From NCBI RefSeq assembly GCF_013167455.1, contig NZ_CP038328.1: a stretch of DNA of 64,000 nt. One strand, 5' to 3'. The position numbers were made by a program. Numbering within the stretch: the stretch's first letter is position 1; every line of letters starts with the position of its first letter. Shown here one piece after another: positions 29,701 through 32,700 of this stretch. The stretch is from Escherichia coli O157:H7. Its GTDB lineage: Bacteria; Pseudomonadota; Gammaproteobacteria; Enterobacterales; Enterobacteriaceae.

Positions 29701-32700
29701 TTCAGTTTCTCCAGAATATCTTCCGTTGTCATTTGATTCGCAATGCAGCTCAGAACCTGATGTTGCTTGCGCGAAAGTGACACATTCGCTTCAGGCACAG
29801 AGCAGTAACTGCCATTGATGAGTGCGACAAAATCAATGATAGTGATAGTCCGCGGAACAAAGGTCACCGGCACTTTCCCCAGGCAGCGTTTAATATTAAA
29901 GGGGGAGAAAATAATGACATGGACAGGTTTTAATCGTTCAATTTGAGTGAGAAAATTAGAATGAAATACATTATTCATTAATGTATCAATAATGACGAAG
30001 GCATTCTGATGCAACATTACGTCGATCTCTTCTTCGTTCTGTATATGAACGACATTACCTTTACTCAGAATGTTTTTCATCGCGGTGAAGAACATCGTAT
30101 CCCTGGTAATTATAAGAAACATAACCGACTCCTGGTGCGGACATTAACTTTATAATCAGTTTGCCAAAGGTAATTAACAGGACAGGGCTTATAATAATAA
30201 TAGTTAGCTTACTGTGTATTAATTTGATGTAATGCATGATGCAGATGCTGAGAAAGCATCTGCATCTTTCGGTGGTGTTATTTGACCAGCTCAGGTGTTA
30301 CCTGACTCACCGCATTGGTGTAGTAAGGCGCACCCCAGCCCGGTTCCGGCCAGAATGCACCATAGCCGTAATCCCACAGGTTATAGGTGGTATTAACCAC
30401 TTCTCTCAAATGCCACACCTGGATGCCCTGCATATTCACTTCCAGGAAGTTATACGGGACTTTATTGATAAAGCCAGGTTGTTCACCCTGAATGGTGCCG
30501 AGGATGGTAACAAAGTGATTACGATAGTTCACTGGATCAAGGAAGCCGCTTTGTCTGGCGAGCAGTCGGCCCTGATAGTTGGCTTCAATATCAGGCTTCG
30601 CATAGCTATCCAACGGTAATACAGCGATTTCTAACAACGTATCCGTTTTGCCATTGATAACGTTGATAACCTTCCCACCAAAGCGCGCTTGTTGACCAAC
30701 ATATAACCCCGGCTGGTTATGAACAGCAACAAAACTTTTTTGAATATCAGGTTGGTTATTTCCTTTGATATTTTGCGGAATTGAACTACATGCTGCAAGC
30801 AAAAATGAAAGGCTGAGTATGAGTGCACCTTTTGTCATGTTCATGTTACTATCCTTATCAACAAATATTAAAACCATAATAGATATTTCTTTATAGTTTT
30901 CATCTGATTCTGAGGCGATATGCCTGATAGTAACGTAAACCTGTCTGATGTTTATATCCCTTCTGTTTAGTTCAATTCCGTTATTTTGGGGCGTGGCATG
31001 AGTATCCATCGCCCCATAATATAACCCTTTGTTTTAAAATTACATAAAATCTATTTTTATTCAATGATTATAAAGTGCTAATAATCAATATTATGGTATT
31101 ATATTCTGATAATGATTTGATAAGCGAATTCTTTTGCCAGATGGTATTTCTATTTCCACCCCATAATTTATATCTTTTTCATTAGGAAGTGGCCTCTTTA
31201 AATAAGGCGTGCGTGACATTTTTTGGGGTTAAGCGTCTCGTATTGAAATACTTCGAATTGATATTCAGACATTTCTGCCCATGTTTGAATTTTATTGTAT
31301 CGAGAGAGTGTCGTAAAGGATTTAACTTGCTTATAACATTCTTTTTGGAATTCTTGCTGATATTTCAATATGTCGTTGTATGAAAGATTGGTTATCCTGG
31401 CCTCTAAAAATTTAATTATTGTCGAAGCAATTTCCGCTTTTGCTCGTAAAAAGTTGTCATTAATGGTTAATAATGTTGAAAATAAACCTTCGATTTGTTT
31501 GTCAAGATATTGTTCGTCTTTATATAATTTTGGAGTAGGGTGTTCTTTATGTGAAAAAATAGTGTCACCTAAATTTGCGTCAGTGAAATTTATATTAAGT
31601 AGATCTTCGAAATAAAACCTTGACAAGGTTAGAACGAACCCGGACAGGTTCTGTCCTGTCATATTGAAATCAATAAAGTTGGTTCCGGCAAAGACTTTCA
31701 TCCTGTTTTTATTTTCACTGTGCTCAATATATAACTTCGTCATTTTTTGATACAGGCTTTGAATATCTTTTATATTAGTCGGTAAGTCAGCTCGTTGTTC
31801 AGCAATAAAATTAGTATCTGAAAACATGGTTTGGACACTGAATCTTACTGGTATTCCCTCTTCTACGCTAATTTTAGTTATGATTGCCTTGTCGGGTTTA
31901 GGATTAGCGACAACAATGATTCGACATTCAGCACTTTTGTTCTTTTCGTATCTAATGTTATTAATTTGATTAAGTATTTCCTGTGCCTGCCGCGTAAGTG
32001 GTGTCGAACTTATCGATTCAATGTTAGTAATAAGACTTACAAGTTGAGCCACAACTTTTGAGTAGTCTGCATCTGTATATTTGGTGTTCGTGCGGCACGC
32101 ATAAATTTGTGGGAGGTGTTGCCGCGCTAAATCATATTGTTCAGGGTTGTATCCTTCTCCAGAGAATGTGGAATTAATGGGTTGTTGTTCTTCCCGATTA
32201 TCACAAGGCCACATCGGTGTGTCTGGTGTTTTAACATTGTCGGTATCTGTTGTGCGGTTATAAATATCGCCGTGATATGTATTTATCATACCTGGGGTAA
32301 AGTCAATTGACATAACATTCCTTATTCATTATCTGTTTTATGCTAAGATTTTTAAATTGGATAATTAAAGCAGGAATGGATTTTCTTCTACGCACAATAA
32401 ATATCATGCGTCATATCTTCCTGATATAATTACCTTTGACTTCCCTTTTATCTCCACCCGGTAATATTCGTGTATAAAAAAGGGCATTGATAGTATCGTA
32501 AAGGAAAACGTTAACAACTATCAAAAAGCGCTCATTTTAAAAAGTTATGATGTTCTCCGATAGTGTGTGAAATGATATTTTTGTGATGTTTTAGATGTGT
32601 AATAATAAAATGGGTTAAGGTATCTTATAATTATTGAATAATTTGTTGTGTAAAGCACTGATAAATCATAATCCAGTACGTTTTTAAACTGCTGCACTGT

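Follow-up and report, generated by a model that had tools for sequence, protein, structure and literature searches.

The window analysed here is a stretch of 64,000 nucleotides (nt) from Escherichia coli O157:H7 (contig NZ_CP038328.1), and the gene in question is yhiS, whose open reading frame (ORF) is located, together with its features, in Table 1. yhiS is flanked by slp and arsC, with no insertion sequence (IS) annotated nearby, and has the ars operon on one side and the acid fitness island on the other; the gene order arsR-arsB-arsC-yhiS-slp-dctR is common to O157:H7 and a K-12-type strain. A 1.8-kb query around yhiS matches O157:H7 chromosomes at 100% and finds some match in 5415 of 5426 complete E. 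coli genomes, although at least 80% of the query is covered in only 4325 of these 5415. In the K-12-type strain, IS5 splits yhiS, and BLASTN recovers fragments at nt 1–746 (94.6% DNA identity) and nt 742–1254 (96.5%). The earlier note, made from the sequence alone, had described a continuous ORF of 371 amino acids (aa) free of IS elements and had given K-12 yhiS as an IS5-disrupted pseudogene; both statements are borne out, and the comparison with the K-12 fragments that it proposed finds homology clearly present. The ORF can be identified as the O157:H7 allele of yhiS without IS5, an already annotated orphan gene, and the contrast between an uninterrupted gene here and an IS5-split one in K-12 follows directly from existing genome annotation. 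The description of the gene as intact, however, has to be given up: the allele is free of IS elements but frameshifted at codon 366, where it carries six A residues (A6) in place of seven or eight (A7 or A8), and the form that most E. coli encode has 407 aa.

The commonest length of YhiS is 407 aa, and the two largest clusters contain 8964 and 2855 members, whereas that of the 371-aa form has 222. The O157:H7 protein is 75–97% identical to the 407-aa alleles and, in the alignment, follows its homologues as far as NPKK365 and then ends CHARLI, whereas the 407-aa proteins continue after NPKK with MS..PYLKR...INYGVEIE...RIRLSNHYQNIIP. The ancestral tail can be recovered from the downstream DNA in another frame, with its stop codon at 31091–31093, and the addition of one A to the run CCCCAAAAAATG restores the 407-aa ORF. 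Thus a −1 frameshift at codon 366 has replaced the last 42 residues by six aberrant ones, and the full-length 407-aa frame of a yhiS orthologue is absent from the window allele (371 aa). The exact A6 version of an 83-mer was found in 295 complete genomes, and the four displayed at 100% identity are O157:H7 or O157:H7-type; because it recurs in so many genomes, A6 is not a sequencing error. The exact A7 version was found in 21 genomes, among them O55:H7 strains (CB9615, RM12579, DEC5A/B/D/E, TB182A, and USDA5905) and some O157 strains (493/89, LSU61, PV15-279, and F3113). O157:H7 is generally considered to descend from the O55:H7 lineage, and 493/89 and LSU61, which are early branches of the O157:H7 lineage, are also A7; on that basis, the deletion in the A-run arose within the O157:H7 lineage, and the window allele is a recent C-terminal truncation. 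The change from A7 to A6 distinguishes typical O157:H7 both from O55:H7 and from the early-branching O157 strains 493/89 and LSU61, and is a candidate lineage marker. Meanwhile, a second 371-aa group (P0022, and P0027 from Shigella dysenteriae) ends CHTHLI, which is the −1 frame product on the other allele background ATGTCATACGCACCT, seen in strain 042 (L006) and in L007; slippage in the A-run has thus probably happened more than once.

Table 1. Position and basis of the features of the yhiS region in the window.
Feature	Position	Strand	Description or basis
yhiS ORF	31198..32313	minus	continuous from ATG to stop, 371 aa
Frameshift site, A6 run (T6 on the plus strand)	31219..31224	minus	full-length alleles have A7 CCCCAAAAAAATG or A8 CCCAAAAAAAATG
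Out-of-frame remnant of the ancestral C-terminus, 42 residues and stop	31091..31218	minus	three-frame translation; alignment with 407-aa alleles
Pentapeptide-repeat-like core, aa 205–254, ten pentads	31552..31701	minus	periodicity test; sub-threshold PF00805; weak repeat-protein matches
Wider module, aa 194–277, pentad core with an LY....K..G linker on each side	31483..31734	minus	phmmer and MAFFT alignments
All-helical C-terminal domain (predicted), aa 267–361, six helices	31231..31515	minus	contains an invariant 11-residue motif
Equivalent of the IS5 insertion point	31568..31572	minus	gene nt 742–746, about codon 248, inside the repeat core; unoccupied here
arsC-yhiS intergenic region	32314..32939		AT-rich, 35.3% GC; presumed location of the yhiS promoter

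The lost tail is well conserved, with INYGVEIE and RIRLS invariant in 33 alleles. At the DNA level, the untranslated 3′ end of yhiS contains two stretches that are invariant in eight alleles, one of 26 nt (31147–31172) and one of 23 nt (31110–31132), which lie about 270–330 base pairs (bp) upstream of the slp start codon; these might be slp regulatory sites rather than a trace of protein constraint.

yhiS has been inactivated independently several times, by IS5, by frameshifts and by deletion. In addition to the IS5 insertion in K-12 and the A-run deletion in O157:H7, O113:H21 strain FWSEC0010 (L009) carries a separate 1-bp deletion at alignment column 760 and stops at aa 281; MNCRE44, of phylogroup B2 and represented by the one locus examined, has yhiS reduced to a 126-codon 5′ remnant; and yhiS is lost almost completely in some strains, such as that of row H30, which keeps only upstream sequence. 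It has been reported that neither deletion of K-12 yhiS in the Keio collection nor its ASKA clone affects the minimum inhibitory concentration of chlorhexidine (PMC8170033); the K-12 gene is treated as an uncharacterised pseudogene (b3504, P37635). As for annotation, RefSeq labels yhiS of DSM 103246 (L004:499-1615) and of strain 042 (L006:696-1812) "frameshifted" despite uninterrupted 407-codon ORFs, and the annotated span in both equals the 371-aa O157:H7 model plus one base. The annotation appears to be inverted, because the truncated O157:H7 protein apparently served as the RefSeq reference. This is a trap for users of the annotation, in which the 371-aa protein is kept as an ordinary product and full-length alleles are flagged in at least two genomes; functional work should take its full-length reference from strains with the 407-aa form, such as O55:H7 or 042, and not from the O157:H7 allele.

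When 1.84 billion cluster representatives were searched exhaustively with HMMER, the YhiS family formed one full-length cluster at 50% identity, and the named members of that cluster are all from E. coli or Shigella. Apart from six repeat proteins described below, the remaining matches are short fragments, nearly all 62–98% identical to the window protein; the most divergent of them, P0160 and P0128, were traced to a contig of very short genes and to a 1.3-kb contig and are uninformative. Two motif scans of 100,044 species-representative genomes found no yhiS, and the E. coli representative itself gave none, while the DNA pattern used in the species scans matches every full yhiS allele fetched; the missing match in the E. 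coli representative would fit a genome that, like MNCRE44, keeps only the 5′ remnant. No yhiS copy was found by tblastn in a phage collection, and a tblastn search of plasmids gave three matches, all in records of 4.8–4.9 Mb that are apparently mislabelled chromosomes. Together, these searches indicate that yhiS is restricted to E. coli and Shigella.

Within this range the alleles of yhiS are markedly divergent, by up to 14% in DNA and up to 25% in protein. slp, at a distance of about 250 bp from yhiS, shows at most four nucleotide differences and no amino acid difference over its first 342 nt in the same strains; the divergence hotspot lies at 30900–32600 of the window, against 30278–30844 for slp. 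Across eight alleles, over DNA divergence of up to 14% and at about 35% GC (guanine plus cytosine), the 407-codon frame is kept without insertions or deletions, the lesions noted above aside. The synonymous divergence (dS) is at most 0.31 among the eight alleles, and the ratio of nonsynonymous to synonymous divergence (dN/dS) is 0.29–0.53 in all pairs with synonymous differences, which points to a real coding gene under weak but significant purifying selection. A sliding comparison gave mosaic blocks, in which stretches of 100% identity adjoin stretches of 74–85%; these blocks point to recombination between old allele lineages of yhiS. The gene content upstream also varies: in some strains (L006–L009) a "permease" gene stands where O157:H7 and K-12 have arsRBC, identity upstream of yhiS falls to about 40% from about 32,600 of the window, and MNCRE44 (L003:4989-5832) has arsC and lacks arsR and arsB.

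The composition of yhiS differs from that of its surroundings. The ORF has a GC content of 35.7%, compared with 51.9% for arsC, 54.0% for arsB, and 48.5% for the whole window, and the AT-rich tract spans about 30,800 to 32,800, so that the AT-richness claimed in the earlier note is confirmed. The protein has an AT-codon-biased composition, with I, T, N, L, and K as the commonest residues. The further claim of low complexity fails, since no 12-residue window of YhiS, at a mean of 3.0 bits, falls to the SEG trigger entropy of 2.2 bits. The arsC-yhiS intergenic region shows no enrichment of promoter-like sites (15 against an expected 10.4 ± 4.0), a scan of the yhiS region found no terminator-like site, and Rfam gave no match within or adjoining yhiS. 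A published table of "promoter islands" lists the arsC/yhiS and insH11/slp intergenic regions in its H-NS section (PMC3661553), and yhiS has been named among high-affinity StpA binding sites (bioRxiv 10.64898/2026.02.10.705075); these reports of H-NS and StpA binding at the K-12 locus fit foreign-type DNA. Over-expression of YdeO induced slp-dctR and not yhiS (PMC4222967). The literature search found no study of the function of O157:H7 yhiS.

The most distinctive part of YhiS is its pentapeptide-repeat-like stretch. From aa 208 to 253, ten residues in a row at a spacing of five are L, F, or M; such a run was reached in none of 20,000 composition-preserving shuffles, and when I and V are also allowed, in 5 of 20,000. 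The only Pfam family reported for YhiS is PF00805 (Pentapeptide), at 12.0 bits against a gathering cut-off of 20.2 bits (expectation value, E = 0.16), and this sub-threshold match recurs in 32 of 33 alleles, with a best E of 0.091. Beyond yhiS-type sequences, the HMMER search returned six proteins that match aa ~178–284 at whole-library E values of 4e-6 to 8e-4, summed over several repeat stretches in each protein; every one of them is a pentapeptide-repeat protein with a strong match to PF00805 (E = 1e-37 to 1e-90). In a profile search of the PDB, the best two matches were the Rfr-domain protein 2f3l (E = 0.006) and At2g44920 (3n90, E = 0.06), followed by QnrB1 and a synthetic solenoid (E = 2–4), and all of them fall on aa 202–256. 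It was also found that aa 194–277 align with one complete repeating module, of about 68 aa, of long pentapeptide-repeat proteins. The repeat region is the best-conserved part of YhiS across alleles and has the lowest dN/dS (0.23–0.28). Ten pentads suffice for about 2.5 turns of a four-sided beta-helix. The pentapeptide-like stretch proposed in the earlier note thus holds up, and is supported as a resemblance that lies below the Pfam cut-off.

Structure prediction adds a possible fold to this picture. An AlphaFold2 (AF2) run on aa 176–365, using an alignment of 13 alleles and 18 module segments from repeat proteins, gave a mean predicted local distance difference test (pLDDT) of 74.8 and a predicted template modelling score (pTM) of 0.68, values that go with an alignment seeded with repeat proteins. 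In this repeat-seeded model, single-residue beta bridges recur every five residues over aa ~207–254 (pLDDT 74–82), and six helices are predicted across aa 267–361 (pLDDT about 75–85). Foldseek found no match at E ≤ 0.001 in the PDB or in viral structures. Rfr23, NP275, alr1298, At2g44920, and MfpA stand near the top of the PDB matches, all at E ≥ 0.3, and the viral library follows the same pattern, with pentapeptide-repeat proteins prominent among the top matches. Structure prediction, which the earlier note had named as a check, is thus compatible with a short repeat fold in YhiS, which is plausible but not demonstrated. YhiS is a soluble protein that has no signal peptide or membrane segment, its maximum 19-residue Kyte–Doolittle hydropathy being 0.99. 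Its N-terminus is polar and rich in Thr, Asn, Ile, and Pro, and its N-terminal half is unassignable. NCBIfam, PADLOC, and PHROGs gave no meaningful match, and no catalytic family was matched across these three and Pfam.

Several features of the neighbourhood lie outside yhiS itself. chuS and chuA, which serve haem uptake (28503–29531 and upstream), directly adjoin dctR, unlike the K-12-type locus, where yhiD-hdeBA come after dctR; this places the chu cluster within the acid fitness island of the window strain, and the MNCRE44 locus is arranged likewise. On the other side, the Rfam AgrB antisense RNA family has two strong matches on the minus strand, at 35225–35308 and 35459–35543 (107 and 92 bits), which are situated between arsR and gor and adjoin the toxin gene dinQ. 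This pair resembles the known agrA/agrB-dinQ arrangement.

The interpretation builds on the identity and anatomy of the gene, its frameshift and the lineage in which it arose, its restriction to E. coli, its hypervariability, the purifying selection on it, and its repeated inactivation, all of which we regard as established. With moderate confidence, we read yhiS as an AT-rich gene found only in E. coli and Shigella, dispensable and probably silenced by H-NS, which encodes a non-enzymatic binding protein and is frameshifted in O157:H7. The ancestral product is a soluble protein of 407 aa, with a polar N-terminus and an unassigned N-terminal half, followed by a short pentapeptide module (aa ~205–254, about 2.5 turns), a predicted six-helix domain, and a conserved tail of 42 residues. 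Typical O157:H7 strains descend from an event in which the A7 run lost 1 bp; the frame shifted at codon 366, and a tail-less protein of 371 aa was left. YhiS may act as a protein-binding scaffold without enzymatic activity; yhiS would normally be silenced by H-NS and StpA and be dispensable in many lineages, and the O157:H7 truncation may be an early step of the same decay that is seen as the IS5 insertion in K-12, the frameshift in O113:H21, and the deletion in MNCRE44.

Several points weigh against this account. Simple decay does not explain a dS that reaches 0.31 when the adjacent slp hardly varies; this suggests old lineages or recombination. The lost tail is conserved both in protein and at synonymous sites, and its loss argues for a loss of function, so that the truncated 371-aa protein could be inactive rather than merely shortened. 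The term scaffold is suggested by the lack of a catalytic-family match and by the usual roles of pentapeptide-repeat and helical-repeat domains. The modelled beta-helix, which may be what the segment adopts, is not independent evidence, because segments of repeat proteins had been put into the alignment; of the five models of aa 176–365, two scored below 48, and a full-length AF2 model of the repaired 407-aa protein, built with 33 alleles, had a mean pLDDT of 35 and is uninformative either way. In addition, the H-NS and StpA data derive from K-12 and not from O157:H7.

The nearest rival is that O157:H7 yhiS is already a pseudogene, in which loss of the tail has abolished function and the 371-aa ORF survives only as an annotation. 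Residues that rank among the best conserved in the family do lie in the tail, the A-run frameshift occurs also on a second allele background (the CHTHLI ending of P0022 and P0027), and unambiguous knock-outs exist in other lineages; against this, 90% of the protein is still in frame, including the repeat module and the helical domain, the A6 83-mer occurs in exact form in 295 complete genomes, the O157:H7 records examined show no further ORF lesion, and part of the DNA-level conservation of the tail could belong to the slp upstream region instead. We regard this reading as unlikely, though with a substantial claim to attention. A related proposal treats the A-run as a slippery site, at which ribosomal frameshifting or reversible slippage between A6 and A7 would make yhiS phase-variable. 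The shift falls within CCC-AAA-AAA-T, a lysine-codon homopolymer, and such runs are known to be slippery; A6, A7, and A8 variants all exist, and the frameshift seems to have arisen at least twice. However, six to eight A residues are short for efficient slippage, and A6 (295 genomes) and A7 (O55:H7, 493/89, and LSU61) each look fixed within separate sets of strains, which leaves phase variation very improbable. Still less credible is a DNA mimic of the Qnr/MfpA type that binds topoisomerases. QnrB1 and MfpA are among the weak sequence and fold matches, but the sequence matches have E = 2–4, with that to QnrB1 at E = 2.3–2.6. Qnr and MfpA consist almost entirely of eight or more beta-helix turns, whereas YhiS has only about ten pentads, or about 2.5 turns, with about 50 of 407 residues periodic, and most of the protein lies outside the repeat.

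The earlier note had also likened the repeat stretch to those of secreted effectors, and the corresponding explanation would make YhiS a type III secretion substrate, loosely "EspX-like", injected by the system of the locus of enterocyte effacement (LEE) or by E. coli type III secretion system 2 (ETT2), with its hypervariability reflecting host-driven selection. EspX proteins belong to the pentapeptide-repeat class and have their genes on the chromosomal backbone of E. coli. YhiS shares with effectors the lack of a signal peptide and a polar N-terminus rich in Thr, Asn, Ile, and Pro; yhiS is AT-rich and reported to be bound by H-NS and StpA in K-12, like many effector genes; its allelic divergence far exceeds that of the flanking slp; and, as in EspX1, a short sub-threshold pentapeptide stretch is followed by a helical region. 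EspX1 itself falls below the Pfam cut-offs, and a word-indexed search finds EspX1 in E. coli and E. albertii only. BLASTP aligns YhiS with EspX1 in two co-linear weak segments (E = 0.05 and 0.11), one of them facing GVFKTLASIDDK, and the EspX paralogues are no more similar to one another than YhiS is to EspX1. Nevertheless, homology between YhiS and EspX1, EspX4, or EspX5 of strain Sakai was rejected as unsupported: the BLASTP values against the three (E = 0.05–1) are not significant, and hhalign against an EspX1 profile gave a probability of 0.4% and did not recover the BLASTP segments, so that of the effector link in the earlier note the resemblance stands and the relationship does not. The locus is detectable in 5415 of the 5426 complete E. 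coli genomes, yhiS is not linked to any secretion locus, and dN/dS averages 0.3–0.5 with no region above 0.8. Many E. coli with the locus are commensals that have no working type III system. A secreted effector is accordingly improbable. The HECT-like C-terminal ligase domain of SopA/NleL-type effectors, which combine it with a beta-helix, was not found in YhiS: sequence searches of Pfam, NCBIfam, and the PDB matched nothing beyond the repeat, and in Foldseek SopA (2qyu) comes no higher than rank 22 (E = 1.5). As regards the name, EspX1 (L012:8331-9752), EspX5 (L013:25055-26347), and EspX4 (L014:6013-7593) of Sakai match one another by BLASTP at only E = 3e-4 to 0.24; because these paralogues are barely similar to each other, the shared name EspX seems to reflect their repeats and not a homology that can be demonstrated, and "EspX-like" is a description, not a testable sequence family.

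The preferred reading, a dispensable binding protein in decay, can be set beside a broader idea about selection. A gene in conflict would be expected to look as yhiS does, with extreme divergence over a short region, alleles that are mosaics, no occurrence beyond E. coli, and loss on several occasions. It is conceivable, though improbable, that YhiS meets an outside co-evolving partner, either a target in the host to which a type III system gives access or a factor of a phage or competitor, and that balancing or diversifying selection keeps old, recombining alleles. If this were so, it would explain why dS reaches 0.31 and the proteins differ by 25% while slp next door does not vary; losing yhiS, through any of the recurrent knock-outs, would have been adaptive in certain niches, and the change from A7 to A6 would mark the emergence of typical O157:H7.

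YhiS can be compared with four known systems. The Rfr-fold proteins (Rfr32 of Cyanothece, 2f3l; At2g44920 of Arabidopsis, 3n90; QnrB1; and MfpA) share with YhiS a tandem five-residue period with a central L, F, or M, but YhiS has only about ten pentads embedded in 407 aa, and its remainder has no counterpart in them. The long repeat proteins P0150, P0156, P0158, and P0159 are built from a unit of about 68 aa with a linker, which YhiS matches end to end; they contain 5–12 such units in tandem, with weak PEP-CTERM matches in three of them and a weak dockerin match in one, whereas YhiS has a single unit and no sorting signal. Their unit consists of pentads of the four-turn type followed by a Q-L-Y-S-T-x-S-Y-x-x-K-x-L-x-G linker. 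EspX1 (ECs_0025), EspX4 (ECs_5021), and EspX5 (ECs_5048) are, like YhiS, chromosomal and contain pentapeptide stretches, but there is no statistically supported homology between them and YhiS, and yhiS carries no effector annotation in the records examined. Finally, K-12 yhiS (b3504, UniProt P37635; conceptual product 407 aa) is the same gene in the same place, between arsC and slp; its lesion is IS5, whereas that of the window allele is a 1-bp deletion at codon 366, and the two arose independently.

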